DNA of 21,344 bases from the NCBI GenBank assembly GCA_014630515.1, contig GCA_014630515.1_4091.1. One strand, written 5' to 3'. The notes beneath the pieces were generated by a model that had not been told where the DNA came from, did not search any database, and saw only the letters and a list, made by a program, of their open reading frames with translations. The stretch's first letter is position 1; each line of letters starts with the position of its first letter. Shown here piece after piece: positions 5,675-18,799 of this stretch. Position numbers and translations under genes: made by a program. This DNA is from a phage.

Positions 5675-6070
5675 TTAGATAACCTGGCGGCGTTTACTGA
5701 ATACTGTTACACGATTACCCTTACGGTCGTGTCGGATCTCTTTCTGGTTGCGAATCAGTTCACTTGGACGCTTAAGGTTTGCCAGGTGATCCGCGTGAGT
5801 CCATGCGGTGTGGTTTACCTGTACTTTGATATCAGAATCAGCGATAAATTCATCTTGTGCGTCAAGTATTGCCGCCAGCATATCCGCTCGTTTTAGTTCT
5901 GCTGCTGTCAGTACTGGCTCAGGTGAATTCACAATATCAGAGATTTCTTTGAACTGTACGGCCCAGCGTTGACCTTTCGGTGCATCTTTGCCCATGTCTT
6001 TAAATGCTGCTCCTTCCTCGCGTGCAACAATACGGGCAGCTTCACGGGTAGCGTAGAATTTAGTAATCAT
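5675..6070 (-). CDS. hypothetical protein (131 aa), paralog of 18533..18799
   Basis: ATG 6068-6070 with AGGA SD (ATG 6077-6079 also possible); shares ATRE.AR..AR..GA.FKDMG and HDRKGNRVTV blocks with 18533..18799. Confidence 0.65.
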   Translation of the reverse strand: MITKFYATREAARIVAREEGAAFKDMGKDAPKGQRWAVQFKEISDIVNSPEPVLTAAELKRADMLAAILDAQDEFIADSDIKVQVNHTAWTHADHLANLKRPSELIRNQKEIRHDRKGNRVTVFSKRRQVI

Positions 6071-6114
6071 GGTATACATCCTATTAGTTGAGTTAGTACT
6101 ACAAGTTAGAGTCT

Positions 6115-6143
6115 ATTATAAAGTACTATCTGGGCAATGTCAA
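6115..6143 (-). promoter_or_regulatory. early sigma70-type promoter
   Basis: minus strand TTGACA, 17 bp, TATAAT. Confidence 0.6.
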
Positions 6144-6165
6144 ATAGTACTTTAAATGGATTCTA

Positions 6166-6489
6166 TTACATGTCTTTCTTACGTTTTACATCGTGGTAGC
6201 GAACTGTTATTTCTTTGTTGATCTCTTCCTCGATGCGGTGAATAACTTTTTCTTTCGGGTTGAAACCTATAACGGTTTCTTTAATGATCTCCAAGCCCGT
6301 GTATTCGCCTTGTGTACCGTAACCGTATGTAAAGGTTTCGTGTCCCAGGTCTTCCCAGCGGTCGCCAATTAACGCAGACACGTAGCAAGAGTGGTAAGTA
6401 TTGCCGTTCCGATCAGTCCAGCGATTAACTTTAATGTCAAAGGAGGTTACAATTTTCAGTTCTACTTTCTGGGTAAGGATCATAGCCAT
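6166..6489 (-). CDS. hypothetical protein (107 aa), paralog of 13677..14021
   Basis: ATG 6487-6489; shares NTYHS/NTYFS, YGYG and C-terminal DVKRKKD with 13677..14021. Confidence 0.65.
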   Translation of the reverse strand: MAMILTQKVELKIVTSFDIKVNRWTDRNGNTYHSCYVSALIGDRWEDLGHETFTYGYGTQGEYTGLEIIKETVIGFNPKEKVIHRIEEEINKEITVRYHDVKRKKDM

Positions 6490-6545
6490 TTTTATTTCTC
6501 TCTCTTTGTTAGGAGGGGAACCATTCCCCTCGCTTGATGTAAACT

Positions 6546-6573
6546 ATTATACAGTACTAAGATACTTTGTCAA
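6546..6573 (-). promoter_or_regulatory. early sigma70-type promoter with 5' stem-loop
   Basis: minus strand TTGACA, 16 bp, TATAAT; leader hairpin GGGGAA-tgg-TTCCCC. Confidence 0.6.
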
Positions 6574-6576
6574 TAC

Positions 6577-6852
6577 TTAAGTATTGTAAATGTCGTGAAT
6601 AGTGATAAAGTTTTTACGACCGTAAACCTGCAAATCTGTATCAATAAAGTGCTTATCTAGTACATCCTCGACGCTTAACGCGGTGTCGTGGATATCTTCG
6701 TAGAATTGAGGATCTACAATCTTGCTTAAGTCATCCGGCGTTAACTTATCGTTAAGCCATTGTACCGCCTGGATATCTGCATCACGTTTCCATTGTTCCA
6801 GGTTAGTAGTCAGTACTTGTTCGATTTCGTTAGCTGTCAGTAGAATCCGCAT
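6577..6852 (-). CDS. hypothetical protein (91 aa)
   Basis: ATG 6850-6852; AAGGA SD. Confidence 0.7.
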   Translation of the reverse strand: MRILLTANEIEQVLTTNLEQWKRDADIQAVQWLNDKLTPDDLSKIVDPQFYEDIHDTALSVEDVLDKHFIDTDLQVYGRKNFITIHDIYNT

Positions 6853-6885
6853 TTTAATGTTTCCTTATCAGTGGTTGATGTAAGT

Positions 6886-6913
6886 ATTATACTCGTTTAC
6901 TTTCTATTGTCAA
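6886..6913 (-). promoter_or_regulatory. early sigma70-type promoter
   Basis: minus strand TTGACA, 16 bp, TATAAT. Confidence 0.6.
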
Positions 6914-7010
6914 ACTATTTTATCAGGGGAGTTTTTCGTGTGCCTTACTCCTGGGCTACTTAACGGGAAGTTACTTATTTCGTTCCCCGTCCTGATGTAA
7001 AACATTATAC
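6908..7010 (-). repeat. 103-bp duplicated block, copy 1 (non-coding leader between two promoters)
   Basis: identical to 18288-18390; no SD-preceded ORF; contains imperfect GGGAA/TTCCC and GGAG/CTCC inverted repeats. Confidence 0.6.
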
Positions 7011-7031
7011 TTGATTCTAAGTACAATGCAA
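7004..7031 (-). promoter_or_regulatory. early sigma70-type promoter
   Basis: minus strand TTGCAT, 16 bp, TATAAT; transcribes the duplicated block. Confidence 0.55.
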
Positions 7032-7075
7032 GTACTTTTTAAAAATAGTTTTCAGTACTAGCCACCAGCTAACAA

Positions 7076-7160
7076 TAGATACATTTATGCACCCGGTGGG
7101 CTGATTTGTTTCTATGCGTATATAATAGCAAAGGGACTGACCGGAGTCAATCCCTTTTTC
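7076..7160 (-). repeat. repeat element C: conserved leader motif, embedded promoter, GC hairpin with T-run
   Basis: core GCACCCGGTGGGCT; hairpin AAAGGGACTGACCGGAGTCAATCCC plus T5; minus-strand TTGACT, 17 bp, TATTAT (7122-7150). Confidence 0.6.
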
Positions 7161-7168
7161 AATTATTT

Positions 7169-7318
7169 TTAAACTTCTTTCGGGTTGCGATAGGTGATAG
7201 CGTTCGGGTACATTTGTTTAATGTTATTCCATGCCTGGTTAACATTGTAACCACTTGAGCGAATCAGTTGGTTACTACCGACACCTTGAAACACTACTTC
7301 GAATAAGAATTCTTTCAT
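7169..7318 (-). CDS. hypothetical small protein (49 aa), not in ORF track
   Basis: ATG 7316-7318 overlaps TGA of 7315..7488 (ATGA); AGGTGA SD 5 nt upstream; stop TAA 7169-7171. Confidence 0.5.
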   Translation of the reverse strand: MKEFLFEVVFQGVGSNQLIRSSGYNVNQAWNNIKQMYPNAITYRNPKEV

Positions 7319-7488
7319 GCTTTCACCTCGCGATCTGCTTTACCTTTACGCCAGGACATTACTAATTGTTCGCGTTGCCATAAGTCGAGTGATACAAAAA
7401 GTTTTGCGGTATCACTTTTAGGATACTCGCCATTAGTACCTAACCGATAAAACAGATCTTTCAGTACTGATAATTCTACTTGGATCAT
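7315..7488 (-). CDS. hypothetical protein (57 aa)
   Basis: ATG 7486-7488; AGGAA SD 6 nt upstream; track start 7590 lies in promoter. Confidence 0.6.
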   Translation of the reverse strand: MIQVELSVLKDLFYRLGTNGEYPKSDTAKLFVSLDLWQREQLVMSWRKGKADREVKA

Positions 7489-7539
7489 TATACTTTCCTC
7501 TTTGTTGGGAGGGGAACTATTCCCCTTCCGATATAAAAC

Positions 7540-7567
7540 ATTATACACTTTATTCAGTACTGTGCAA
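7540..7567 (-). promoter_or_regulatory. early sigma70-type promoter with 5' stem-loop
   Basis: minus strand TTGCAC, 16 bp, TATAAT. Confidence 0.55.
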
Positions 7568-7574
7568 GTACTTT

Positions 7575-7787
7575 TTAATCTTTCAGCCAATGATCCTGAA
7601 TGAATTTTTCACCGAAGCCTTGCTGCATGGATTGTAACAGTCGTTCACGGTGAGCGGCGGCAAATTGCTCAGTACTATGCGTTACACCTGGTTGATATCT
7701 GGATTCACCATTGGGGGCGATGTATTGTACATCCCACGGTTTAGCGTTAGTATCAGACCATTTACGAACGATTAGTTGACCTTGCAT
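7575..7787 (-). CDS. hypothetical protein (70 aa)
   Basis: ATG 7785-7787; AGGAA SD; track start lies in leader. Confidence 0.65.
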   Translation of the reverse strand: MQGQLIVRKWSDTNAKPWDVQYIAPNGESRYQPGVTHSTEQFAAAHRERLLQSMQQGFGEKFIQDHWLKD

Positions 7788-7837
7788 TTTTCTTTCCTCA
7801 GTACTGGGGAGAATCATTTCTCCCCTTCATGTAACTT

Positions 7838-7865
7838 ATTATACAGTACTGGATTGCATTGTCAA
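7838..7865 (-). promoter_or_regulatory. early sigma70-type promoter with 5' stem-loop
   Basis: minus strand TTGACA, 16 bp, TATAAT; leader hairpin GGGGAGAA-atgatt-CTCCCC. Confidence 0.6.
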
Positions 7866-7871
7866 TAGTTT

Positions 7872-8195
7872 TTATTCACCTTGTTTGAATTTAGTTTTCT
7901 GCATTGATTCCATGATTGCAACTAGTACCGCATGAATCTCGCTTAACGCGGAATCACTGAAAGCATTAATGAATAGTCGATCATTCTCGCGAATATTTTT
8001 AATGTACTTTTCAGCAGTAGTTGCGAATTCATTCAACGGTAGATCAAATGCTTTATCCCATGATGGATGGCGTAATTGTAACAGTACTGGATTATCACGG
8101 TCACCAGGTGAGAAAGTGCCTGTAATGAAACATACACCTGGGATACTTTCGAATTGACAACGGACTTCTTTTGTGATAGTAGTGTGAATATACAT
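7872..8195 (-). CDS. hypothetical protein (107 aa)
   Basis: ATG 8193-8195; AGGAA SD 8 nt upstream; 25-nt gap to 8221..8409, so co-transcribed. Confidence 0.7.
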   Translation of the reverse strand: MYIHTTITKEVRCQFESIPGVCFITGTFSPGDRDNPVLLQLRHPSWDKAFDLPLNEFATTAEKYIKNIRENDRLFINAFSDSALSEIHAVLVAIMESMQKTKFKQGE

Positions 8196-8220
8196 TTATC
8201 GTTTTCCTATTGAGTTAATA

Positions 8221-8409
8221 TTACATATTTTTAATTAATTCTTTATCTAAGCGATAGCGTACATTATTAATGGTAACAGCATTATTTTTAATGCTACGCT
8301 GTACTGGCCCACCAGCAAGAACAAACGTTGCTTTATTGCCCCGAACTATGATAGCACTTCCAGGATTACCGAAATCATCTTGTACTAAAATACTTGATAA
8401 GTTTTCCAT
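8221..8409 (-). CDS. hypothetical protein (62 aa)
   Basis: ATG 8407-8409 lies 8 nt after GAGGA; the ATG at 8413-8415 is too close to the SD. Confidence 0.6.
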   Translation of the reverse strand: MENLSSILVQDDFGNPGSAIIVRGNKATFVLAGGPVQRSIKNNAVTINNVRYRLDKELIKNM

Positions 8410-8455
8410 TTTCATTTCCTCTTAGTAGGGGAAGACGTTTCCTCTTGATGTAAGT

Positions 8456-8484
8456 ACTATAACAGTACTGAAAACTAAATGCAA
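8456..8484 (-). promoter_or_regulatory. early sigma70-type promoter
   Basis: minus strand TTGCAT, 17 bp, TATAGT. Confidence 0.5.
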
Positions 8485-8487
8485 GTA

Positions 8488-8844
8488 CTATGATAAAATC
8501 ATGATAGGATATTCACTATCGATCAGTACCTCGAATCCAAAACCTTCGTACCATTCTTTAAGATTAAAGGCGTTATCTTCTCCCGTATCGCATTCTAAGA
8601 TGATACAATCTGAATCATCGGCGGCATCGATAAAGGCATTCATTAATTCGTTACCTTCACCATTGCCCCGACTATCAGGATCAACATAAAGAGAATCAAT
8701 AAACGCTACACGGTCATAATCAAGATCCGGTGCAATGATTCCACGTTTAACAAACCAGTACTGCAATTGTGCTACTTTGCCCTGTACTTGATAACCAGTG
8801 ATCTCGCCATTGTCAGTAGTACGCGTGATATGATGTATTCCCAT
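8488..8844 (-). CDS. GNAT-family N-acetyltransferase-like protein (118 aa)
   Basis: ATG 8842-8844; AGGAT SD; translation has GNAT motif-A-like YVDPDSRGNGEGNELM and C-terminal WYEGFGFE. Confidence 0.6.
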   Translation of the reverse strand: MGIHHITRTTDNGEITGYQVQGKVAQLQYWFVKRGIIAPDLDYDRVAFIDSLYVDPDSRGNGEGNELMNAFIDAADDSDCIILECDTGEDNAFNLKEWYEGFGFEVLIDSEYPIMILS

Positions 8845-8873
8845 GATTTCTATCCTCAGTTAAGATATAAAAC

Positions 8874-8901
8874 ATTATACACTATCTTTCAGTACTGTCA
8901 A
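8874..8901 (-). promoter_or_regulatory. early sigma70-type promoter
   Basis: minus strand TTGACA, 16 bp, TATAAT. Confidence 0.6.
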
Positions 8902-8908
8902 TTACTTT

Positions 8909-9166
8909 TTATCTCATAGATCTATGCCAACAATTACGCGGATCTCTTTTAAAAGTACTATCATGATCCTCCTGGCAAGTGATACAGTACTTACACCCCT
9001 TAACGGCCTGGCGGCGATTCTCAGGGATTTTATCGCCGCAGTCGAGGCAATGTATCAGTGATTCTATTTGTGCGTTAATTTGCGTTCTAGCGTGGTTAAC
9101 AGCGGCCTGAATCACTGCGTTAATCTCGTCTTGCTCGGCCCCATCTTTTGTGAATCCTACAGCCAT
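8909..9166 (-). CDS. TraR/DksA-family C4 zinc-finger protein (85 aa)
   Basis: ATG 9164-9166; translation has CLDCGDKIPENRRQAVKGCKYCITCQ (CxxC, 17 residues, CxxC with conserved Arg). Confidence 0.65.
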   Translation of the reverse strand: MAVGFTKDGAEQDEINAVIQAAVNHARTQINAQIESLIHCLDCGDKIPENRRQAVKGCKYCITCQEDHDSTFKRDPRNCWHRSMR

Positions 9167-9464
9167 TATTTTAACCTCATTATAAAAATACTATAGTACT
9201 GTAACGCGACAAGTATATTACTTGTTCTTACTTTTTCCAATCCATACGACACGACATATTCATCCCCATATGTGCGGATCACCACACCATGAAAATTTTT
9301 ATACACTTCCACTACTAATCATAACCTTTCGTCTAACCAACTGCATAGAATTATACTACTTTACGCAAATTGATCAAGTATTGATCAGATCATTTTTTGA
9401 TCAATATTAGACAGCTACATTTGTGCACCCTATGGGTTAGTGACGTTCTCGTCTTGATGTAAGT

Positions 9465-9493
9465 ATTATGCCAGTACTGGCATAATTTGTCAA
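9465..9493 (-). promoter_or_regulatory. sigma70-type promoter followed by conserved leader motif (element E)
   Basis: minus strand TTGACA, 17 bp, CATAAT; leader 9421-9460 carries the GCACCCTATGGGTTAGTGAC core; the nearest downstream gene is ~290 nt away. Confidence 0.5.
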
Positions 9494-9497
9494 TAGA

Positions 9498-9695
9498 TTA
9501 TTTTAACTTTTTTCTGTCATTGATTAATGCTTTCAGTACTATACTAATAACTTGCAATGATTCATCAATGACTATGAAATTATTCTCTTTCATTAGATGA
9601 TAGTTACCATTGATTGTATATTCTAATGAGTATTGTTTACGTTTAATTTTTGATAATGTATCAATTTGTTTTTGTACTGATTTCATGCTAATCAT
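9498..9695 (-). CDS. hypothetical protein (65 aa)
   Basis: ATG 9693-9695; AGGA SD 9 nt upstream; no clear own promoter. Confidence 0.55.
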   Translation of the reverse strand: MISMKSVQKQIDTLSKIKRKQYSLEYTINGNYHLMKENNFIVIDESLQVISIVLKALINDRKKLK

Positions 9696-9758
9696 TGTTA
9701 AACGTCCTGTAATGCATTCTAACGAGTTAAACGGTTTAGTACTGGCATTGTATAGGGT

Positions 9759-9794
9759 AAATGATTAAAGCCCACCAGCGTTAACCAGTGGGCT
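9759..9794 (-). terminator. rho-independent terminator (minus strand)
   Basis: minus strand AGCCCAC-loop-GTGGGCT (7-bp stem) followed by TTTAATCATTT; 3 nt after stop of 9801..9944. Confidence 0.55.
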
Positions 9795-9800
9795 ATATTC

Positions 9801-9944
9801 TTACATCTTGCGGATAATCTTAACAGTATCTTTCACCGATTTACCGTTTTGCTGGCATTGCTCGATCATCGCGTATTGTTCTGCGGTCAGATCCTCGCCA
9901 GTTTTTGCCAGTACTGCGTCGATGAATGAATCCAGTGCGATCAT
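9801..9944 (-). CDS. hypothetical small protein (47 aa), not in ORF track
   Basis: ATG 9942-9944; AAGAGAG SD; own promoter 9989-10016; stop TAA 9801-9803. Confidence 0.55.
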   Translation of the reverse strand: MIALDSFIDAVLAKTGEDLTAEQYAMIEQCQQNGKSVKDTVKIIRKM

Positions 9945-9988
9945 TTTGTTTCTCTCTTAGGTTAAGTTAACTACTGTTTATAAAACTT

Positions 9989-10016
9989 ATTATACAGTAC
10001 TATCAATCATTGTCAA
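9989..10016 (-). promoter_or_regulatory. early sigma70-type promoter
   Basis: minus strand TTGACA, 16 bp, TATAAT. Confidence 0.6.
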
Positions 10017-10043
10017 TAGATTTAATAGTACTGGTAATATATT

Positions 10044-10223
10044 TTAGCGGTAGTCGTCGTATGCTTTATTCACCTGGCGAATGTAACTTTCAAAGGCTTC
10101 GTCTACCGTTTCATACTCCCGAACATAATCACCATAGGAAACTACATACATCCCTTTTTGATCTTCAAACGTCATGATGATAGAATCCAGGCCGATGATT
10201 TCAGTTTTTGCGATAATAGCCAT
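10044..10223 (-). CDS. hypothetical protein (59 aa), paralog of 14113..14325
   Basis: ATG 10221-10223; AAGGA SD; track start 10295 lies in promoter; shares MAII start and Y.VS...Y....VD.A..Y block with 14113..14325. Confidence 0.6.
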   Translation of the reverse strand: MAIIAKTEIIGLDSIIMTFEDQKGMYVVSYGDYVREYETVDEAFESYIRQVNKAYDDYR

Positions 10224-10266
10224 TTTAGTATTCCTTAAATTAATATGCGTTGTCTTGATAAAAGTT

Positions 10267-10295
10267 ATTATGCCAGTACTATCAAACGTTGTCAA
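10267..10295 (-). promoter_or_regulatory. sigma70-type promoter (CATAAT subtype)
   Basis: minus strand TTGACA, 17 bp, CATAAT; same cassette as 14065-14093 and 14361-14389. Confidence 0.55.
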
Positions 10296-10314
10296 TAGTA
10301 CTGTGATAATATTT

Positions 10315-10527
10315 TTAGTTAATGATAGTCAGTGTAAAATTGTAATCCCCTGCCTGGTATAGTACTTTATCGCCGAACGTGCCAACACGTTTCATATTGC
10401 AATAGATACCCATAACACTTTTTACATCTTTGATATTCCGAACACCTGTGATATCCTTGTTGAAATTTTCATGATCAGAAAATAAAACTTGTTTTGCATT
10501 TTTCAGTACAGTGCGGATATTAGCCAT
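10315..10527 (-). CDS. hypothetical protein (70 aa)
   Basis: ATG 10525-10527; GAGGA SD; track start lies in leader. Confidence 0.65.
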   Translation of the reverse strand: MANIRTVLKNAKQVLFSDHENFNKDITGVRNIKDVKSVMGIYCNMKRVGTFGDKVLYQAGDYNFTLTIIN

Positions 10528-10577
10528 TTTGTTTTTCCTCTTAGTGGGGAGAATCATCTCTCCCCTTGATGTAAACT

Positions 10578-10605
10578 ATTATACAGTACTATAATCTATT
10601 GTCAA
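10578..10605 (-). promoter_or_regulatory. early sigma70-type promoter with 5' stem-loop
   Basis: minus strand TTGACA, 16 bp, TATAAT; leader hairpin GGGGAGAG-atgatt-CTCCCC. Confidence 0.6.
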
Positions 10606-10618
10606 ACTATTTTTTATA

Positions 10619-10957
10619 TTATTCGAAATCTTCTGGACCGGACTGATAATCATCTTCACCGTATGCACTTTCTAACTTCTCACCAGTGCAATCATCAGTT
10701 AGTGAGTCATCCTCATAGTTCACGTCTACGCCAGTGATGTAAAACTGGCTATCGTCTGGATCATTGAAATTAATTTTTTGGATGTTTACAATAACTGTAT
10801 TGATACCCAGGACACCGCCATCAGCCGTTACAAAGTACTGATAGTTTTCGCAACCGCCTGAATTGAAACCGTAATTAATTTCGGCCCGACCATCATTTAA
10901 ACGCAGTGCCTGGGCGATGAATTCGTTTTCAAAGTTAGATTGAGCGATTGAGATCAT
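10619..10957 (-). CDS. acidic protein (112 aa)
   Basis: ATG 10955-10957; AAGGAA SD; C-terminal third is Asp/Glu-rich. Confidence 0.7.
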   Translation of the reverse strand: MISIAQSNFENEFIAQALRLNDGRAEINYGFNSGGCENYQYFVTADGGVLGINTVIVNIQKINFNDPDDSQFYITGVDVNYEDDSLTDDCTGEKLESAYGEDDYQSGPEDFE

Positions 10958-11021
10958 TTTGTAGTTCCTTGTTTGCTTAAGATGGGACTATTATATAATA
11001 GCCCCGTTGTGTTGTCTAGTA

Positions 11022-11489
11022 CTATTTTACGTTAATTTCTAAGTACTGCTCTTTGATGTTTTCCTGTTGGTAAATCTCGTTTAATGCTTTAAGATCTAAC
11101 ACCTGTTTACCTGCGGCCCGAATATACTTGTTAAGAGTCGCTAACAGCTTCTCAGGCGTGTTTGTAGTCTTACGGGTAGGGATTTTGTCATGTCCCATCG
11201 CGTAGTACTGTTTACGTGGAATAGTACTGATAACGCTGCGGTACGGTTCCATGATCAGCTTGTCTGTGTATTCGTCGCTATCCCCGAACTTCATACCGTG
11301 GATCGCAAAGGTCATCATCATGCGGTCGTTATCGCGGATATTGTGGGGGCAGTCGGCAAGCTCGCGAGTCAGTGACATAGTGATCCCCACGTCGCCACCC
11401 AGCGGTAAAGGTCGGGCGATAAAGAAACCGTTAGGGAATACTTTCAGGAAGTTTTCTTGTACTGCTGCGACGAATTCGATGCTATTCAT
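11022..11489 (-). CDS. hypothetical protein (155 aa)
   Basis: ATG 11487-11489; AGGAA SD 7 nt upstream; leader hairpin GGGGAAA-cgg-TTTCCCC. Confidence 0.7.
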   Translation of the reverse strand: MNSIEFVAAVQENFLKVFPNGFFIARPLPLGGDVGITMSLTRELADCPHNIRDNDRMMMTFAIHGMKFGDSDEYTDKLIMEPYRSVISTIPRKQYYAMGHDKIPTRKTTNTPEKLLATLNKYIRAAGKQVLDLKALNEIYQQENIKEQYLEINVK

Positions 11490-11541
11490 AATTCATTTCC
11501 TTAGTTACCAGGGGAAACCGTTTCCCCTTGCTATGTAAAAC

Positions 11542-11569
11542 ATTATACTTGATTCTAAGTACAATGCAA
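11542..11569 (-). promoter_or_regulatory. early sigma70-type promoter with 5' stem-loop
   Basis: minus strand TTGCAT, 16 bp, TATAAT. Confidence 0.6.
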
Positions 11570-11589
11570 GTACTTTTTGCAAAATACTT

Positions 11590-11772
11590 TTAATCTCTTT
11601 GATACTCACATAACGCCATATCATACGCAATTGACGCTGATTTGAAATCATCGTGACGCTCAATCTCTTTCATGTCTACATAGATGATCCATAGGTTTAC
11701 GTCTTCCTGGCGTATGATAACGGCAGGTTTACCGATGATATGTGATGCCGCTAGTTCGATTGGTTTAAACAT
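11590..11772 (-). CDS. hypothetical protein (60 aa)
   Basis: ATG 11770-11772; AAGGAG SD 8 nt upstream; transcribed from the promoter inside repeat element D. Confidence 0.65.
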   Translation of the reverse strand: MFKPIELAASHIIGKPAVIIRQEDVNLWIIYVDMKEIERHDDFKSASIAYDMALCEYQRD

Positions 11773-11805
11773 TGTAGTACTCCTTATTAGATTGATATAT
11801 TTTAT

Positions 11806-12547: not shown

Positions 12548-12575
12548 ATTATACAGTACTGAAAACTAATTGCAA
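12548..12575 (-). promoter_or_regulatory. early sigma70-type promoter with 5' stem-loop
   Basis: minus strand TTGCAA, 16 bp, TATAAT. Confidence 0.6.
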
Positions 12576-12578
12576 GTA

Positions 12579-12821: not shown

Positions 12822-12875
12822 TATACTTTCTCTCTTTGAGTGAGGCGGGAACTATTCCCGCTCTCGATGTAAACA

Positions 12876-12903
12876 ATTATACAGTACTGAAAACTAATTG
12901 CAA
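12876..12903 (-). promoter_or_regulatory. early sigma70-type promoter with 5' stem-loop
   Basis: minus strand TTGCAA, 16 bp, TATAAT; leader hairpin GCGGGAA-ctatt-CCCGC. Confidence 0.6.
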
Positions 12904-13103
12904 GTATTATTTTCTAAAAAATGATTGTATGCTGCATCAACCACTCTTTCGATAACATACGCCAACGGCACGTATCCAACTACATGACTACAATAGAAAG
13001 GACTACGATTAGAATCATCGTATGCAAATACTTTACCAGGTACGGCATCAATCACATACATATTAACCTTTAAGATGTCAATCTTATCCTGTACAGTAAG
13101 CAT
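12894..13103 (-). CDS. hypothetical protein (69 aa)
   Basis: ATG 13101-13103 lies 1 nt after TAA of 13105..13275; track start is a TTG inside the upstream gene. Confidence 0.55.
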   Translation of the reverse strand: MLTVQDKIDILKVNMYVIDAVPGKVFAYDDSNRSPFYCSHVVGYVPLAYVIERVVDAAYNHFLENNTCN

Positions 13104-13104
13104 A

Positions 13105-13275
13105 TTACGCCGCCTTATCAGTACTGGCAACCGGACGGATACGGGCCATCGCCTGGGCTTGTTCTACGCTGTATTGTTCGTATAGTCTGCATTCTTCCGG
13201 TGTAGGAATAGCATCAATACGTTTCATTGGTTTAATGATGCTTTCAACTTCATTCAGTACTTGATTAACGTTCAT
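13105..13275 (-). CDS. hypothetical small protein (56 aa), not in ORF track
   Basis: ATG 13273-13275; GAGGA SD 7 nt upstream; stop TAA 13105-13107; the overlapping track ORF 13272..13502 is in another frame. Confidence 0.55.
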   Translation of the reverse strand: MNVNQVLNEVESIIKPMKRIDAIPTPEECRLYEQYSVEQAQAMARIRPVASTDKAA

Positions 13276-13326
13276 GGTATAATCCTCAATATAAGCGGCC
13301 TAAATCGACCGCTAACGATGTTTTGA

Positions 13327-13596
13327 TTAATAGGTGTATGGTTGACGCTCAAACAATGATTGCACGTTGTACGCCCCGCTAATGGGCTTTGCTGGTAAAT
13401 CAATTTTATATTGTTCACGCTTAAAAATAATAAAACGGCAATTGTTTTTAACATCAAAATTGATTGAACGTTCCAATAGCTTTCCTTCGTGTACAAATAC
13501 AAGATAACCGCTTGCTACTTGTTTTGTAGTACTGGTTGCAACCATAGACCGACGAACATGAGTACCTGCATCGATTAAAGTACTGATATTTTTCAT
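13327..13596 (-). CDS. hypothetical protein (89 aa)
   Basis: ATG 13594-13596; AGAGGA SD 7 nt upstream. Confidence 0.7.
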   Translation of the reverse strand: MKNISTLIDAGTHVRRSMVATSTTKQVASGYLVFVHEGKLLERSINFDVKNNCRFIIFKREQYKIDLPAKPISGAYNVQSLFERQPYTY

Positions 13597-13634
13597 TATA
13601 CTATCCTCTTAAGTTAATTTAATTTCTTTCCCCT

Positions 13635-13671
13635 ATGCAGACACTATATCAAAGTATCTGCATAAAGTAAA
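13635..13671 (-). promoter_or_regulatory. atypical promoter overlapped by operator-like inverted repeat
   Basis: minus strand TTTACT, 17 bp, TATAGT; inverted repeat ATGCAGACAC / GTATCTGCAT (one mismatch) 13635-13662 spans the spacer and -10. Confidence 0.45.
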
Positions 13672-13676
13672 GCTAA

Positions 13677-14021
13677 TTAAAGATCTTTTTTGCGTTTAAC
13701 ATCAGTTACCGAACTGTAAACAGTGATATTATTGTCACGGCAAAAACGGGAAAGATAAGAACCGCGTAAAAACTCTTTACCTTCCATATTAATAACCTTG
13801 CTAAATTCTTCCATTGCTACAGTGTCAAAGTGATCCCCGTATCCATATTGGAACGGCACGTTTACTACTTCAATAAAATTACCATCAATTTCTACGTCTA
13901 CACTTAAAGAGAAATAAGTGTTACCATATGAAGCCTGGAACCAACGCCGAGCGGCAATATGTACAACTTCAACAGAAGACAGGTTGATATTTTGTGATGC
14001 GATAGTGTTGATGTTAGCCAT
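13677..14021 (-). CDS. hypothetical protein (114 aa), paralog of 6166..6489
   Basis: ATG 14019-14021; AAGGA SD; C-terminal DVKRKKDL. Confidence 0.7.
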   Translation of the reverse strand: MANINTIASQNINLSSVEVVHIAARRWFQASYGNTYFSLSVDVEIDGNFIEVVNVPFQYGYGDHFDTVAMEEFSKVINMEGKEFLRGSYLSRFCRDNNITVYSSVTDVKRKKDL

Positions 14022-14064
14022 TTTAGTATTCCTTAACTTAATATGTGTTGTCTTGATAAAATCT

Positions 14065-14093
14065 ATTATGCCAGTACTATCAAACTATGTCAA
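14065..14093 (-). promoter_or_regulatory. sigma70-type promoter (CATAAT subtype)
   Basis: minus strand TTGACA, 17 bp, CATAAT. Confidence 0.55.
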
Positions 14094-14112
14094 TAGTACT
14101 GTGATAATAATT

Positions 14113-14325
14113 TTACTTACTTTCTTTCGCTGCTTTATGTGTTGCCACTGCCATAACCACATCAGCACGAACAAAGTTAGCAACCGTATCAGTGTAATAT
14201 TTGATTGCATCGTCAACTTCTGCGAACGTCCGATACATACCACACCAAGATACTTTATAACCTGCTTTCACTTGTTCCAGCTTAACCAGTGTTTTGTTTA
14301 CTTTGATTTTAGTAATGATAGCCAT
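14113..14325 (-). CDS. hypothetical protein (70 aa), paralog of 10044..10223
   Basis: ATG 14323-14325; GAGGA SD 9 nt upstream. Confidence 0.65.
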   Translation of the reverse strand: MAIITKIKVNKTLVKLEQVKAGYKVSWCGMYRTFAEVDDAIKYYTDTVANFVRADVVMAVATHKAAKESK

Positions 14326-14360
14326 TTTTTTGTTTCCTCTTAGTTGTCTTGATAAAATCT

Positions 14361-14389
14361 ATTATGCCAGTACTATCAATCTATGTCAA
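14361..14389 (-). promoter_or_regulatory. sigma70-type promoter (CATAAT subtype)
   Basis: minus strand TTGACA, 17 bp, CATAAT; ~70-bp block repeated from 14040-14110. Confidence 0.55.
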
Positions 14390-14408
14390 TAGTACTGTGA
14401 TAATAATT

Positions 14409-14552
14409 TTACTTACTTTTTGCTTTCTTTGATGCTTCAACCTGGTCGGCCCACTCTTTACCCCATACTTGAGCATTATAATGATACTGGCAAAGAGCAA
14501 CGCCCCGCTTTAAACCAGTAATAGATTTTTTACCACATTGACAAGTTTTCAT
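14409..14552 (-). CDS. small Cys-containing protein (47 aa), not in ORF track
   Basis: ATG 14550-14552; GAGGA SD; CQCG ... CQYH spacing suggests a small metal-binding knuckle; stop TAA 14409-14411. Confidence 0.5.
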   Translation of the reverse strand: MKTCQCGKKSITGLKRGVALCQYHYNAQVWGKEWADQVEASKKAKSK

Positions 14553-14601
14553 TTTAGTTTCCTCTTAGTGGGGAGAACCATTTCTCCCCTTGATGTAATG
14601 T

Positions 14602-14629
14602 ATTATACTTTATCTGATTTACTTTGCAA
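14602..14629 (-). promoter_or_regulatory. early sigma70-type promoter with 5' stem-loop
   Basis: minus strand TTGCAA, 16 bp, TATAAT. Confidence 0.6.
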
Positions 14630-14637
14630 GTACTTTT

Positions 14638-14865
14638 TTAATTTAATTCATCCAGGCAAAGGATACGTTCTACACCTAAATCAGTTAAGCTAATAGACGG
14701 CACTTGATAGGTTTCAATGTATTCTACACTAGCGTACTGACCAAACTCATCAACTGACCAGTTATACATTGCAAAATGTAGTTCCGCACCTTTCTTGTTA
14801 GTGATAACCGCTACTACTGCCGCATTGCCAACTGTACCAGATACGCGAGTGATTACGATAGCCAT
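14638..14865 (-). CDS. hypothetical protein (75 aa)
   Basis: ATG 14863-14865; AGGAA SD; track start 14922 lies in leader. Confidence 0.6.
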   Translation of the reverse strand: MAIVITRVSGTVGNAAVVAVITNKKGAELHFAMYNWSVDEFGQYASVEYIETYQVPSISLTDLGVERILCLDELN

Positions 14866-14920
14866 TGTTTTGATTCCTTTGATTTGGAAGGAGAACCGTT
14901 TCCCCCTCTCGATGTAAAAC

Positions 14921-14948
14921 ATTATACGCTAATCTCTTAATCGTGCAA
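14921..14948 (-). promoter_or_regulatory. early sigma70-type promoter with 5' stem-loop
   Basis: minus strand TTGCAC, 16 bp, TATAAT. Confidence 0.55.
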
Positions 14949-15102
14949 GTACTTTTTATTACTTTTTGCAAAATACTTTAAACGCCCTCAATCGCATTCT
15001 AACGACCTTAACGCCACCAGCTAGGGCGACGCATCAGATAATCAGTTTAATGCGTTAGAATCGATTCTAGGCGGTGCTAGTGGACTGGAATACTATAGAC
15101 AC

Positions 15103-15129
15103 AAAAAAGCCCACTGTTTAAGGTGGGCT
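15103..15129 (-). terminator. rho-independent terminator (minus strand)
   Basis: minus strand AGCCCAC-cttaaaca-GTGGGCT followed by TTTTTTGTGTC; downstream of 15151..15633. Confidence 0.7.
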
Positions 15130-15150
15130 AGTGATTCAGTACTTTAATTG

Positions 15151-15633
15151 TTATGCTTCAACTTTGCGATGAGCTTCGATCCATTCCTCGCGAGTCATAC
15201 CGCTTTCTTTGATAGCGTCCAGTACTACCGCAATGCAGTTACCGCGTACAGGAATCATATGTTCTTCCCCGTTATCAAGTACTACAGTAACACGTTCTTG
15301 AATCCATTTTTTAGGTTTAGATTCTGGCTTATCTTCACCATACTTAACCGCCAGGGCTTTATGTGCCATTTCTACAACTACTTCCAGATCCAATCCAGAC
15401 ACCGCCGCCTGGATACTTTCAATTGTTGCTTGCAGTTCGGCTTCACGGGCTTTTTTCTGTTCTTCCAGTTCTGCTACCTTTTTGGCTTGCAGTTCTTTAG
15501 CTTCACTGTACGCAATGTTAAAATTGTTGCGTACTGCTTTCATGGTATCGTTATCCAGGTCAGCCAGCAATTCAGCAGCAATAACAGTATCGTTTGAAAT
15601 CAGTGCTTTCAGGAATGATTTTACATTAGCCAT
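15151..15633 (-). CDS. hypothetical protein (160 aa), Ala/Glu/Lys-rich central region
   Basis: ATG 15631-15633; GAGGA SD 8 nt upstream; long ~120-nt leader. Confidence 0.7.
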   Translation of the reverse strand: MANVKSFLKALISNDTVIAAELLADLDNDTMKAVRNNFNIAYSEAKELQAKKVAELEEQKKAREAELQATIESIQAAVSGLDLEVVVEMAHKALAVKYGEDKPESKPKKWIQERVTVVLDNGEEHMIPVRGNCIAVVLDAIKESGMTREEWIEAHRKVEA

Positions 15634-15756
15634 TTTATAAATCCTCAATTAAAGTTTAGTTTACGTTTATTAGTGTATCAAAGTTTTATCGACGTGTCCA
15701 GTTTTTCGTTCGACTTACTGGCGGTCTACTTAGTGCTCCCCGTCTTGATGTAATAC

Positions 15757-15784
15757 ATTCTACGCCTTTTTGTGGTAATGTCAA
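15757..15784 (-). promoter_or_regulatory. sigma70-type promoter
   Basis: minus strand TTGACA, 16 bp, TAGAAT; followed by a diverged copy of the duplicated leader block (15665-15750). Confidence 0.5.
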
Positions 15785-15832
15785 CTACTTTTTTAAAACT
15801 ATTTTTAAAGTATGCAGTACTACGATAATACA

Positions 15833-15863
15833 AAAACAAAAAAGCCCACTGTATAAGTGGGCT
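15833..15863 (-). terminator. rho-independent terminator (minus strand)
   Basis: minus strand AGCCCAC-ttataca-GTGGGCT followed by TTTTTTGTTTTTG; same module as 15103-15129. Confidence 0.7.
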
Positions 15864-15880
15864 AGTGATTCAGTACTATA

Positions 15881-16180
15881 TTATAAACAATTAATTACGC
15901 CAGTGAATGTAACTTTCTCTGTATCCATTACAGTGACAGAACCGCGTTTACTTTTTGCATCGTAATAGATGGTCGTGCTACCCTGATCATCTTCTTCATG
16001 GTACGGGCCATTAGCAAACATTGCAGGGGCCAGTTCCAGGGATTTGGTAACGATCTCAGCCGTTTCCTCGTTAGTCATTGCAACAGTGCACTGAATGAAT
16101 TTTTCTTTCGGTACATCAACGGAAGCGTTAACAGCGAAAGAGGAAACAGATAAAGCCAGGGCGATGATTGCAGTTTTCAT
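15881..16180 (-). CDS. small secreted or periplasmic protein with N-terminal signal peptide (99 aa)
   Basis: ATG 16178-16180; N-terminus MKTAIIALALSVSSFAVNA has Lys then hydrophobic core then AxA-like site. Confidence 0.7.
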   Translation of the reverse strand: MKTAIIALALSVSSFAVNASVDVPKEKFIQCTVAMTNEETAEIVTKSLELAPAMFANGPYHEEDDQGSTTIYYDAKSKRGSVTVMDTEKVTFTGVINCL

Positions 16181-16230
16181 TTGTATATCCTTTGTTAGTA
16201 CTAGGGAGTATTCCCGATTAGATGTAAAAC

Positions 16231-16258
16231 ATTATACGCATTTAAAAACTATTATCAA
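16231..16258 (-). promoter_or_regulatory. early sigma70-type promoter
   Basis: minus strand TTGATA, 16 bp, TATAAT. Confidence 0.5.
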
Positions 16259-16293
16259 GTACTTTAATATAAAAGTATTTGAAAAAAAAAGTC

Positions 16294-16322
16294 TTGACAA
16301 CTGCATCCAGTACTGGCATAAT
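16294..16322 (+). promoter_or_regulatory. plus-strand sigma70-type promoter
   Basis: plus strand TTGACA, 17 bp, CATAAT; only clear plus-strand promoter inside the gene array. Confidence 0.5.
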
Positions 16323-16328
16323 ACTTAC

Positions 16329-16425
16329 ATAAAGACGAGATAGTCACTAACCCACAGGGTGCATAGATCCGTCTATTAAATGATTCAGTACTGCAAAATA
16401 AAGGGGATCGTTTGATCCCCTCTGT
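16329..16425 (+). ncRNA. candidate small RNA (plus strand) carrying the conserved leader motif
   Basis: starts ~7 nt after the 16294-16322 promoter, contains GAGATAGTCACTAACCCACAGGGTGC, ends at hairpin 16402-16421; no SD-preceded ORF. Confidence 0.3.
16393..16421 (-). terminator. rho-independent terminator (minus strand)
   Basis: minus strand AGGGGATC-aaac-GATCCCCT followed by TTTATTTTG; 5 nt after stop of 16427..16648. Confidence 0.65.
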
Positions 16426-16426
16426 A

Positions 16427-16648
16427 TTACTTAGTAAGATATAAACAAAAATCACCTTTCTTTGCTACGCCGCCAGTGTAACGCGATGAATAGTTAGAAA
16501 CGTCTTGCACTTCTGCAATGACGAGCGTATCATCATTTATTTCGTCGCAAAAACATACTGCGGGATCTTCTACGCCAATATTGTCAGCATGTGCCCGCAT
16601 AGATTTAACCAGTGCTTCAAGCTGGGAAAGAGTAGTGATATTAGCCAT
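16427..16648 (-). CDS. hypothetical protein (73 aa)
   Basis: ATG 16646-16648; AAGGAG SD 8 nt upstream. Confidence 0.7.
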   Translation of the reverse strand: MANITTLSQLEALVKSMRAHADNIGVEDPAVCFCDEINDDTLVIAEVQDVSNYSSRYTGGVAKKGDFCLYLTK

Positions 16649-16699
16649 TGTAAAACTCCTTATTAGTGGGGAGAACCATTTCTCCCCTTGATGTAAACT

Positions 16700-16727
16700 A
16701 TTATACAGTACTGGAAACTAATTGCAA
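16700..16727 (-). promoter_or_regulatory. early sigma70-type promoter with 5' stem-loop
   Basis: minus strand TTGCAA, 16 bp, TATAAT. Confidence 0.6.
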
Positions 16728-16735
16728 GTACTTTT

Positions 16736-16939
16736 TTAATTTAATTGCTTTAAAACATAATCAAAGACACCACGCACATCATTGATCATCGCCTGGCGGT
16801 TAGCAGGTAACGCATCAGGATCGCCACTATCCCAGGCATTAATGAAGCCACCTAAATCATGGAATACTTTATTCCGTAACCCGATCAACTGCAATTCTTT
16901 TTCTTCAAGCTCTTTGATACGTTTAATTAAATCACTCAT
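16736..16939 (-). CDS. hypothetical protein (67 aa)
   Basis: ATG 16937-16939; GAGGA SD overlaps stop of 16957..17241; start region GAGGATTATCTAATGAGT is duplicated at 17241. Confidence 0.6.
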   Translation of the reverse strand: MSDLIKRIKELEEKELQLIGLRNKVFHDLGGFINAWDSGDPDALPANRQAMINDVRGVFDYVLKQLN

Positions 16940-16956
16940 TAGATAATCCTCAGTAC

Positions 16957-17241
16957 TCAATTGTAAGATCCGCAACGGTCGCAGTAGTGCCCGTCCTCGT
17001 CATCTTCTACCACTTGCCCGATGAAATGATCTACTTTCGCTTTCAGGTTATTATAATCGTTTTCTACTTCCTTTAAACGCTTCTGGTAGTATTCCAGTGC
17101 TTTAAGATATGCCGCATCAGTAGTTTTCTCCTGCATAGCTAAATTCATGCCACGCGTTTCATCGTACAGCCAAAAACCATCGGTGCACTCACTTATAGAC
17201 AATGACTTGCTTAACACATTGTACTTTATTACTTTACTCAT
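16957..17241 (-). CDS. hypothetical protein (94 aa)
   Basis: ATG 17239-17241; GAGGA SD; C-terminal CDRCG. Confidence 0.7.
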   Translation of the reverse strand: MSKVIKYNVLSKSLSISECTDGFWLYDETRGMNLAMQEKTTDAAYLKALEYYQKRLKEVENDYNNLKAKVDHFIGQVVEDDEDGHYCDRCGSYN

Positions 17242-17291
17242 TAGATAATCCTCATTAAAGGCGGGAACTATTCCCGCTCTCGATATAAAGT

Positions 17292-17319
17292 ATTATACGT
17301 TAATCTAATTACTTTGCAA
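17292..17319 (-). promoter_or_regulatory. early sigma70-type promoter with 5' stem-loop
   Basis: minus strand TTGCAA, 16 bp, TATAAT. Confidence 0.6.
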
Positions 17320-17326
17320 GTACTTT

Positions 17327-17563
17327 TTAGTGCTTTTTATAAAACATCTCAGCGGTGATATTTTTACCCGTTGGTTGTACTTTATCCAGGATCTTTTGGT
17401 GTGCACTACGCCCGAAAGAATAAGAACCGTAAACCGTTAGCCAGTAGTCGCCATTTTGGTTTACATGTACCGCACAATAAGGAACGCCCCGCGAATCGTC
17501 ACCAATGAAGTGTGATACTGTACCCGTTACGTTTGGCGTTGTAGTTTTGATTTGTTCGATCAT
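17327..17563 (-). CDS. hypothetical protein (78 aa)
   Basis: ATG 17561-17563; AGGAG SD 8 nt upstream; track start lies in leader. Confidence 0.6.
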   Translation of the reverse strand: MIEQIKTTTPNVTGTVSHFIGDDSRGVPYCAVHVNQNGDYWLTVYGSYSFGRSAHQKILDKVQPTGKNITAEMFYKKH

Positions 17564-17621
17564 TTCTCTTACTCCTGGGATATAGGCGGGAACCATTCCC
17601 CGCCATTGATTCAGTACTGAA

Positions 17622-18233
17622 TTAATATTCGATAGATTCTACTACATCGTCGATAACGTTAAATTGATATTCGTTACCCTCAATCAGTCCTACAATGTTT
17701 TCAGTAGTAAACTGGTCTTCATAAGCATTTTCTAAATCACGGTACAGCTTACAAGATAATTCTCGGATAGTATCAGTCAGTAAGTTTTCCAGATCCTCAG
17801 CCAATGCAGCCTGTTTTACAGTTAAATCAGTGTAGCGAGTATCAACGCAACCGCCTACCGTGTTTTCGTGAGCGTAGCGTGATTGGGAACGTTCTACACT
17901 CATTTCCAAATCATCTTCGTTCAATAGGTGACGGATGGAACGATATTTCGTTAACGCCTTAACCTTGCGTAAAAACTTCTCAGCGTCAACGTGGTCAGTA
18001 CTGATTGATGCACCGTCACCTTGCGACCAAAAACCACTGTATTGCAATTCAGCTTCATCTATGCCGTATTCTGGCAGTACTGTTTCTTTATAGTATTCCA
18101 GTACTGATTCAGCAAAGAAATTATCCTCACTTGCACGTTCCCGATCCCGAACCAGTTCGATAGCCGCCGCTTGTTGTTCTGCGTTCAGTTCAGAAAAATC
18201 CATAACGAAAGTAGTAGTAGTGATAGTTTTCAT
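17622..18233 (-). CDS. acidic protein (203 aa)
   Basis: ATG 18231-18233; GAGGG SD; strongly Asp/Glu-rich; largest gene in the window. Confidence 0.7.
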   Translation of the reverse strand: MKTITTTTFVMDFSELNAEQQAAAIELVRDRERASEDNFFAESVLEYYKETVLPEYGIDEAELQYSGFWSQGDGASISTDHVDAEKFLRKVKALTKYRSIRHLLNEDDLEMSVERSQSRYAHENTVGGCVDTRYTDLTVKQAALAEDLENLLTDTIRELSCKLYRDLENAYEDQFTTENIVGLIEGNEYQFNVIDDVVESIEY

Positions 18234-18265
18234 TTTGTAACCCTCATTCAGTAGTTGATGTAAGT

Positions 18266-18293
18266 ATTATACGCTTTTAAAAACAATTGTCAA
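18266..18293 (-). promoter_or_regulatory. early sigma70-type promoter
   Basis: minus strand TTGACA, 16 bp, TATAAT. Confidence 0.6.
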
Positions 18294-18390
18294 ACTATTT
18301 TATCAGGGGAGTTTTTCGTGTGCCTTACTCCTGGGCTACTTAACGGGAAGTTACTTATTTCGTTCCCCGTCCTGATGTAAAACATTATAC
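18288..18390 (-). repeat. 103-bp duplicated block, copy 2
   Basis: identical to 6908-7010; lies between two tandem promoters upstream of 17622..18233. Confidence 0.6.
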
Positions 18391-18411
18391 GCCTTTAAAC
18401 ATAGTTTGCAA
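18384..18411 (-). promoter_or_regulatory. early sigma70-type promoter
   Basis: minus strand TTGCAA, 16 bp, TATAAT. Confidence 0.55.
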
Positions 18412-18444
18412 GTACTTTTTGAAAATAGTTTTTATCTCTTTCAT

Positions 18445-18526
18445 ATAGATACATTCCCGCACCCTATGGGCTATCGCCTTGTGTCCGGCTTGTAAGTATT
18501 ATCTCACTAAGCCGGATAACGGTCAA
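18445..18526 (-). repeat. repeat element G: promoter with conserved leader motif and flanking inverted repeat
   Basis: minus strand TTGACC, 17 bp, GATAAT (18498-18526); inverted repeat CCGGCTT/AAGCCGG brackets the -10; leader has CCCATAGGGTGCGGGAATG. Confidence 0.5.
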
Positions 18527-18532
18527 GTACTT

Positions 18533-18799
18533 TTATTCAAGTACTGCAATCTTTTTAGTACTGTACACAGTAACGCGGTTGCCCTTGCGGTCGTGCTTTA
18601 TTTCTACCACGCGACGCGATACACTATCAGGACGCTTTAAAGCAGATAGCCAGTACTGAATTGATCGGGCTGTACTTTGCTTTACTACGGCCCAACGTTT
18701 ACCACGTTCAGATTGTACGCCCATATCTTTAAACGTTGCCCCGTCCTGGCGTGCTGCAATCCGAGCTAGTTCACGCGTCGCAAAATATGTAATAGTCAT
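18533..18799 (-). CDS. hypothetical protein (88 aa), paralog of 5675..6070
   Basis: ATG 18797-18799; track start is a TTG in the promoter. Confidence 0.6.
   Translation of the reverse strand: MTITYFATRELARIAARQDGATFKDMGVQSERGKRWAVVKQSTARSIQYWLSALKRPDSVSRRVVEIKHDRKGNRVTVYSTKKIAVLE

Follow-up and report, generated by a model that had tools for sequence, protein, structure and literature searches.

Are small genes that recur within one early region of a phage genome copied together with their promoters, or do genes and promoters travel apart? The question is raised by contig GCA_014630515.1_4091.1 (assembly GCA_014630515.1), a phage DNA stretch of 21,344 nucleotides (nt) analysed here over its whole length and referred to as the window. 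A first-pass annotation had listed five pairs of similar small genes in the window, denoted A to E below, and had proposed that promoter and leader sequences were often duplicated along with them. About 45 near-consensus sigma-70 promoter/leader cassettes are present in the window and form one repeat family. The window probably represents the hyperplastic early-gene direct terminal repeat (DTR) of a RaK2-like jumbo coliphage, in which these cassettes act as portable recombination homology for whole-gene modules.

By megablast, the window belongs with the 121Q/PBECO4 group of Escherichia jumbo phages (genus Asteriusvirus), which are 87-94% identical to it and cover it as a mosaic, to an extent of only 33-78%. 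The best local match is phage A4 (98.4% identity over positions 13560-14420). The annotated DTR of vB_Ec-M-J (1-21525) aligns with positions ~434-21272 on the opposite strand; reverse-complemented, the window corresponds approximately to the ~21-kb DTR of a jumbo coliphage of the genus Asteriusvirus (121Q/PBECO4-like). For Asteriusvirus genomes, two papers that mention no promoters give DTR lengths of 20.7-21.5 kb (PMC13070987, PMC11895373). All credible genes of the window lie on the minus strand.

The region would consist of some fifty mostly monocistronic modules, each comprising a near-consensus sigma-70 promoter, a conserved initial transcribed sequence, a hairpin in about half of the cases, a ribosome-binding site (RBS) and a small open reading frame (ORF). 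Cassettes with a hairpin leader are referred to as class H and those without a hairpin, about half of the total, as class S. Recombination between the 60-110-nt regulatory cassettes would delete, insert, transpose or replace whole-gene modules, and would include exchange with unrelated coliphage genera.

Gene homology and upstream similarity

The proposed pairs were analysed by all-against-all BLASTP of the minus-strand ORFs of the window, with shuffle controls and PHROG assignments. Coordinates of the genes (Table 1) had been listed correctly, except that the gene given as 139..335 extends to 336 and that the entry 1..136 is a gene cut by the window edge. Protein homology beyond the start codons indicates that four of the five pairs (A, B, C and D) are genuine homologs, and that pair E is not. 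A1 and A2 are 34% identical over 128 columns (E = 4e-19 within the window ORF set; shuffle z 30.7, or 27 with the first residues trimmed) and both belong to phrog_8127. The inserted middle segment noticed at the outset is a 45-residue stretch within A1 that is missing from A2. B1 and B2, both members of phrog_6246, show 30% identity (z 15.6; 14.6 after trimming of the start) and feature a conserved core, RW..GNTY.S...F.YGYG, as well as a C-terminal DVKRKKDL motif.

The similarity of C1 and C2 is marginal in pairwise comparisons (z 6.9; 5.0 without the first six residues), and the two proteins fall into different PHROGs, C1 matching the PHROG of C2 only at E 0.04. Profiles derived from database homologs align with an hhalign probability of 95.7% (E 1e-8, 48 columns), and we accept C1 and C2 as remote homologs at the profile level. 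Distant matches of C2 to long proteins, namely fn3 and TPR repeat proteins, were dismissed as compositional noise. An AP2-like reading of the block Y.VS...Y....VD.A..Y was unsupported in this analysis.

The two tandem MRIL genes of pair D are weakly similar to each other (z 8.2; 4.4 without the MRIL start), yet both cluster with 23 tandem paralogs of phage 121Q. Long head-to-tail arrays of genes coding for ~60-70 residues, without individual promoters, border the DTR on both sides (positions 1-7400 and 27800-31800 in 121Q). The array on the left side of the window, represented by positions 2-336, is made up of the family of 23 found in 121Q; a different family, with 10-14 members per genome, is found on the other side. 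The two adjacent genes of pair E, which had been paired by their start regions, encode proteins with no similarity (z 3.5) and no shared PHROG. All that connects them is GAGGATTATCTAATGAGT, an 18-nt RBS/start sequence repeated exactly at 16934-16951 and 17236-17253 (0 expected by chance). Their resemblance stops at the RBS and first codons, an outcome that the first-pass annotation had itself named as counting against its interpretation. Families A and B are present in exactly two copies each in all five Asteriusvirus regions compared, and their duplications must therefore be old. Families A, B and C, like the D array, are probably gene families that arose long ago, have since diverged and now travel in separate modules.

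Local similarity was scored among the 110-nt stretches upstream of all 53 genes. Nearly all top-scoring pairs stand before non-homologous genes, and the closest cassette pairs, 91-100% identical over 105-185 nt, precede unrelated genes. For instance, the double-promoter repeats at 6868-7052 and 18248-18432 are 89% identical overall and 100% identical over a core of ~105 nt, and the genes downstream are unrelated. Cassette similarity is largely decoupled from gene homology.

This pattern bears on the duplication model of the first-pass annotation, according to which segmental duplication copied gene, promoter and leader together, and upstream similarity is a remnant of that event. Pair A fits the model, weakly. 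Upstream of A1 and A2, each region has the other as its best match, though the score is modest (92nd percentile), and the two have in common a specific 22-nt segment 5' of the -35 hexamer and the GATAGTACTTTATAAT block. Pair C is ambiguous: the upstream score is at the 99th percentile, but the paralog ranks only second, behind the cassette of the unrelated gene B2. The C1 cassette (10224-10321) is 91% identical to the B2 cassette (14022-14119) and 70% identical to the C2 cassette (14326-14415), and the promoters of C1 and C2 are each nearer to that of B2, at 91% identity over 110 nt. Upstream rankings do not bear out the duplication of promoters in the remaining pairs. B1 is preceded by a class-H and B2 by a class-S cassette, and the paralog ranks only 20th and 5th. 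The D genes, although a true tandem duplication array, lack individual promoters; neither D nor E has paired promoters, and E is no gene pair. Moreover, cassettes that are 90-100% identical cannot date from the gene duplications, because the paralogs are now only 30-34% identical. We regard the duplication model as improbable. Sharing of upstream sequence likely reflects membership in the cassette family, and not co-duplication, with the possible exception of pair A.

The ~105-nt element located between the two tandem promoters of the double-promoter repeats (6905-7012 and 18286-18390, minus strand; 100% identical in both copies) has a diverged copy at 15660-15765. The 18.3-kb copy is 100% identical in four other Asteriusvirus genomes, in which the neighbouring gene is only ~80% identical, and the Vequintavirinae phage A7_1 carries a version of the element with 88.6% identity. 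Folded as RNA, it reaches -19.4 kcal/mol (z -2.4), with no Rfam match. Its closing stem is apparently kept, with different bases, in the diverged copy. The element may represent a small RNA, a component of a leader or the remains of a module.

Differences in module content among relatives and sharing across genera

The window was compared with five relatives, WPEC5, 121Q, ELP-22, G17 and vB_Ec-M-J, the first four by tblastn. Insertions, deletions and transpositions of whole genes and one allelic replacement were found among them. Modules at 1782-1997, 5087-5305, 7872-8195, 12350-12496, 12579-12821 and 16736-16939, as well as the C2 module, are missing in some relatives; C2 is found in 121Q and missing from three other close relatives. 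The modules at 11022-11489 and 11590-11772 are missing from all four tblastn relatives, and the fifth shows the same alignment gap. The neighbouring modules at 12350 and 12579 occur in swapped order in WPEC5 and ELP-22, and the homolog of 17327-17596 is located at a different site in three genomes.

Chained nucleotide alignments revealed 51 distinct breakpoints, 49 of which lie at gene boundaries (27 are intergenic and 22 are within 40 nt of a gene end); the other two are located inside 17622-18233. Most breakpoints delimit whole genes. In at least 11 indels, 45-108 nt of cassette align on both sides of the module.

Two junctions were aligned base by base. At 6490-6576, where WPEC5 carries an extra gene, the window has a single cassette, the 5' flank of which corresponds to the distal and the 3' flank to the proximal cassette around the WPEC5 gene. 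Conversely, ELP-22 lacks the module 5087-5305, which in the window is found between near-identical direct-repeat cassettes, and its single cassette is a chimera of window positions 5306-5362 and 5030-5086. At both junctions the crossover occurred within the identical promoter core. Chimeric cassettes of this kind are what recombination between direct repeats would be expected to produce; such recombination would be homologous and may proceed via circular intermediates. The notion that recombination between repeated cassettes shuffles modules, already put forward in the first-pass annotation, thus gains strong support from both genome comparison and chimeric junctions. Cassette-mediated modular shuffling appears well supported, and co-duplication of genes with their promoters does not seem to be the main explanation.

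The allelic replacement concerns the B2 locus, at which the family member found in all four tblastn relatives shares only 33% identity with the window gene. The replacement breakpoints (13702 and ~14005-14014) fall within the conserved ends of the gene, so that the resident promoter was kept and the gene body replaced. A gene body swapped under a retained promoter also speaks against co-duplication. In DNA sequence, the B2 allele shares 76-80% identity with genes of phi92-like/phAPEC8-like phages (~150 kb), and the protein is 74-84% identical in phi92-like, phAPEC8-like and A7_1-like phages (~145-150 kb). The allele appears to have been acquired horizontally.

Breakpoints at the conserved ends of the gene, and not over a full cassette, together with the closeness of the allele to phi92-like/phAPEC8-like genes, would suit a different account, in which illegitimate recombination or horizontal acquisition from co-infecting phages is independent of cassettes and selection keeps the events that respect gene boundaries. 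The same is true of the 841-nt window-specific insertion, bordered on one side by a terminator repeat and not by a promoter cassette. We nonetheless hold this account to be quite unlikely. Homologous cassette sequence of 45-108 nt lies to either side of most indels, and the donor phages carry the same cassettes, so that homology was available for exchange.

Several points weigh against cassette-mediated shuffling. Purifying selection alone would also leave breakpoints at gene boundaries, and alignments necessarily run into any similar cassette, so that overlaps alone prove no mechanism. The chimeric junctions are stronger evidence than the overlaps, but only two were examined in detail. In addition, the mutual-best upstream regions of pair A and the sharing of the C2 module with its flanks imply that promoter and gene sometimes move together. 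If cassette-mediated shuffling holds, it would explain why the early region in the DTR is the most variable part of Asteriusvirus genomes.

Cassettes and genes are shared across genera. C1 has homologs with 71-86% identity in phi92-like/phAPEC8-like phages. Phage A7_1 (Vequintavirinae, 145 kb) carries both cassette classes; nine genes of the window have homologs in it (42-89% amino-acid identity), which are arranged differently. A 77-nt A7_1 cassette located before an unrelated gene is 94.8% identical to window positions 12831-12906, and the whole C2 module with both flanking cassettes is 86.5% identical in A7_1. Matches to the class-H cassette number 839 and are spread, in multiple copies each, over 74 phage records, which range over RaK2-like jumbo genera (phages of Escherichia, Klebsiella, Salmonella, Yersinia, Erwinia and Serratia) and a few Vequintavirinae. 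In RaK2-like phages, the matches fall within annotated terminal repeats where these are marked.

It is conceivable, although we put it forward tentatively, that the cassettes are a shared docking sequence of an early-gene exchange network between lineages, with the hairpin serving both as an mRNA element and as a preferred crossover or structure-forming site. During co-infection, cassette-to-cassette recombination would then move single-gene modules between RaK2-like jumbo phages and unrelated coliphages of ~145-150 kb (Vequintavirinae, phi92-like, phAPEC8-like), in a manner resembling an integron without an integrase. The presence of the same cassettes and genes in another phage subfamily offers a concrete route by which ORFans for host takeover or anti-defence could spread among coliphages.

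Cassette anatomy and other features of the window

Scoring against the sigma-70 consensus revealed 44 sites in the window with at least 10 of 12 matches, 38 of which are on the coding strand. Ten are perfect 12/12 promoters (TTGACA-N16/17-TATAAT), all on the coding strand. Direct-repeat families reach 23 copies in the window. The promoters would be expected to fire early with host RNA polymerase.

In class H (21 leaders in the window), 49-56 nt separate the -10 hexamer from the ATG. The leader contains, in order, a conserved (A/G)TTTACATC(A/G)AG motif, a GC hairpin, an A-rich stretch, a Shine-Dalgarno (SD) sequence and the ATG. The hairpin has a GC stem of 6-9 bp that begins 12-14 nt past the -10 hexamer and is followed by no U-tract. 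Class-S leaders are 28-44 nt long and have no hairpin. In both classes, the cassette ends on its 3' side with the SD and start codon. Each of the 21 class-H leaders folds, with energies of -5 to -16 kcal/mol and a mean shuffle z of -3.9. Stem pairs were tabulated from individual leader folds, as a MAFFT alignment of the leaders was out of structural register and was not used. Because the 18 distinct stem sequences all fold, with compensatory pair types at several positions, the hairpin structure itself is conserved. It would form part of the mRNA, and may stabilise or regulate it.

Variable stems with compensatory changes, and the fact that the most conserved positions are functional elements (-35, -10, ACATCAAG, hairpin, SD), are also what functional convergence would leave. 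Under that explanation, selection drove each upstream region independently toward a strong sigma-70 consensus, a hairpin that stabilises the leader and a strong RBS, and the repeats have no role in recombination. Yet non-consensus spacers and flanks are identical as well, with 89-100% identity over 105-185 nt, a 77-nt cassette is 94.8% identical across phage subfamilies, and chimeric junction cassettes and direct-repeat-flanked indels exist. Convergence alone is very improbable.

The A-rich sequence that follows the stem in place of a U-tract argues against the class-H hairpin being a classical intrinsic terminator. Seven good intrinsic terminators were found on the coding strand, apart from the class-H leaders; four of the seven are in a repeated element with a 12-bp stem. 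In the G17 record, several leader hairpins between promoter and RBS are annotated as rho-independent terminators (ARNOLD); these labels are doubtful, given the position of the hairpins and the absent U-tract.

The repeated terminator module occurs at 2156-2240, 4077-4161, 7075-7159 and 11775-11902. Its hairpin (AAAGGGATTGAC-TCCG-GTCAGTCCCTTT) lies directly 3' of a gene and is followed by a gene-free gap holding a conserved GCACCCnnTGGG / ATAGATAC motif. Six copies of this motif were found, including those at 9405-9432, 18439-18466 and 19992-20019. Transcription units appear to be bounded by these terminator modules. Four sites that resemble promoters, TTGACTCCGGTCAG...TATTAT, were rejected as such, being loops and arms of the 12-bp terminator hairpins.

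The palindrome AGTACT occurs 133 times in the window, as opposed to ~6.4 expected occurrences (20-fold), and 88 of these sites are within the non-coding third. Relative to -10 hexamers, it is positioned at -7/-8 and -27/-30, and in many promoters it provides the TG of an extended -10 (AGTACTG|TATAAT). Elsewhere, it reaches 2-8 per kb in the small-gene arrays flanking the DTR and is 5-fold enriched in a structural-gene region of 121Q; it is hardly enriched in the early region of A7_1.

Mechanical ORF calls with TTG or upstream ATG starts run through promoter/leader cassettes at 4787-5086, 5087-5362, 7315-7590, 14638-14922 and 19217-19636; the real starts are downstream ATGs behind an SD. Two apparent paralog pairs were rejected on this ground, those starting with MTVLKCFSTMYIYQHG (4787-5086 and 5087-5362) and those starting with MFYIE (14638-14922 and 19217-19636), the shared N-termini of which are translated promoter/leader DNA. 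For annotation, TTG-start ORFs that cross promoters should be treated as artefacts, and leader hairpins should not automatically be taken as terminators.

Pfam provided no family for most of the window proteins scanned; the few domain signals are listed in Table 1. Rfam and tRNA scans of the window returned nothing above threshold. The outer ~1.6 kb of the terminal repeat (19700-21344) contain no credible genes; at 20370-20521, 8-bp units (CGTCTAGC/CATCCAGC-like) are arrayed in tandem. This segment corresponds to the physical genome end in vB_Ec-M-J, and may have a role in packaging or end recognition.

Table 1. Positions of the genes, cassettes and other elements of the window discussed in the text.
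Feature	Position	Strand	Remarks
Tandem MRIL genes (pair D)	2..336	-	2-142 (cut by window edge) and 139-336; outside the DTR; first members of tandem family
Asteriusvirus DTR equivalent, early-gene region	434..21272	-	Leftward transcription; alignment to annotated DTR of vB_Ec-M-J
Protein-kinase-like match	4171-4755	-	Weak, sub-threshold (E 0.004)
Module 5087-5305 between direct-repeat cassettes	5030..5362	-	Near-identical cassettes 5030-5086 and 5306-5362
Family A, long member (A1), 131 aa	5675..6070	-	Own promoter (-10 ending at 6115); own terminator 5635-5651
Family B, member 1 (B1), 107 aa	6166..6489	-	Preceded by hairpin-class cassette
Single chimeric cassette at empty site	6490..6576	-	Comparison with WPEC5
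Double-promoter repeat, copy 1	6868..7052	-	
DUF7247 protein	7872-8195	-	Pfam-level domain signal
GNAT acetyltransferase	8488-8844	-	Pfam-level domain signal
DksA/TraR C4 zinc finger	8909-9166	-	Pfam-level domain signal
Family C, member 1 (C1), 59 aa	10044..10223	-	
S cassette upstream of C1	10224..10321	-	TTGACA..GATAGTACTGGCATAAT..TTTTATCAAGACAAC subtype
Window-specific two-module insertion	11022..11772	-	Lies between a gene start/promoter and a repeated terminator element
Family B, member 2 (B2), 114 aa	13677..14021	-	Preceded by hairpin-less cassette
Family C, member 2 (C2), 70 aa	14113..14325	-	
Representative H cassette	16649..16745	-	TTGCAA-N16-TATAAT, AGTTTACATCAAG, hairpin GGGGAGAA-ATGG-TTCTCCCC, A-rich stretch, AGGAG, ATG
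Pair E, two adjacent unrelated genes	16736..17253	-	In common: 18-nt RBS/start repeat only
Double-promoter repeat, copy 2	18248..18432	-	
Family A, short member (A2), 88 aa	18533..18799	-	Without the ~45-aa middle segment

Comparison with known systems

Phage T5 has a long direct terminal repeat, pre-early/early small genes for host takeover and strong host-type promoters. The window region is similar in layout: its genes lie within a long direct terminal repeat and are served by predicted host-type promoters. It differs in that the repeat is about twice as long and contains far more promoters.

Among RaK2-like phages, the available text on CBB lists 18 RpoD-like promoters with a UP-like element, located upstream of short hypothetical early genes and in some cases within the terminal repeat (PMC5259590). 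As far as that text goes, sigma-70-type promoters are concentrated in the early region and terminal repeat of CBB, as in the window, and no repeated promoter-hairpin family, cassette recombination or cross-genus sharing is described. A literature search found no account of the cassette family for Asteriusvirus.

The closest parallel is provided by the promoter-early stem-loop (PeSL) cassettes of T4-type phages, in which a sigma-70-like early promoter is combined with a stem-loop, an SD and a start codon. Enriched in hyperplastic regions, PeSLs bring about indels of ORFans and give rise to mini-circles; their stem-loop, which is located upstream of, within or overlapping the promoter, has been shown to terminate transcription (Arbiol et al. 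2010, PMC2839356; Comeau et al. 2014, PMC4122927). A search for PeSL literature beyond these two papers returned only unrelated acronyms. The cassettes described here are likened to PeSLs by sequence and genome comparison.

The architecture differs in several respects. In the window, the hairpin is downstream of the -10 hexamer, in the predicted 5' leader, and lacks a U-tract; about half of the cassettes belong to a hairpin-less class; separate terminators with a 12-bp stem are present; and the setting is the ~21-kb DTR of a RaK2-like jumbo phage. In other respects the two systems are alike. Both are repeated composites, ~60-100 nt long, in which a sigma-70 promoter close to consensus is combined with a GC-rich stem-loop and a 3' SD and start codon, and both occur in a hyperplastic region of small ORFans in which single-gene indels or replacements distinguish close relatives and junction cassettes are chimeric. 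A repeated strong promoter, a stem-loop within the cassette, a 3' SD/start, indels at cassettes and chimerism at empty sites were all found here. We therefore interpret the cassettes as a PeSL-like modular shuffling system with a different architecture. The idea that a regulatory cassette doubles as a recombination site, documented so far only in T4-type phages, would thereby extend to the DTR of RaK2-like jumbo phages.

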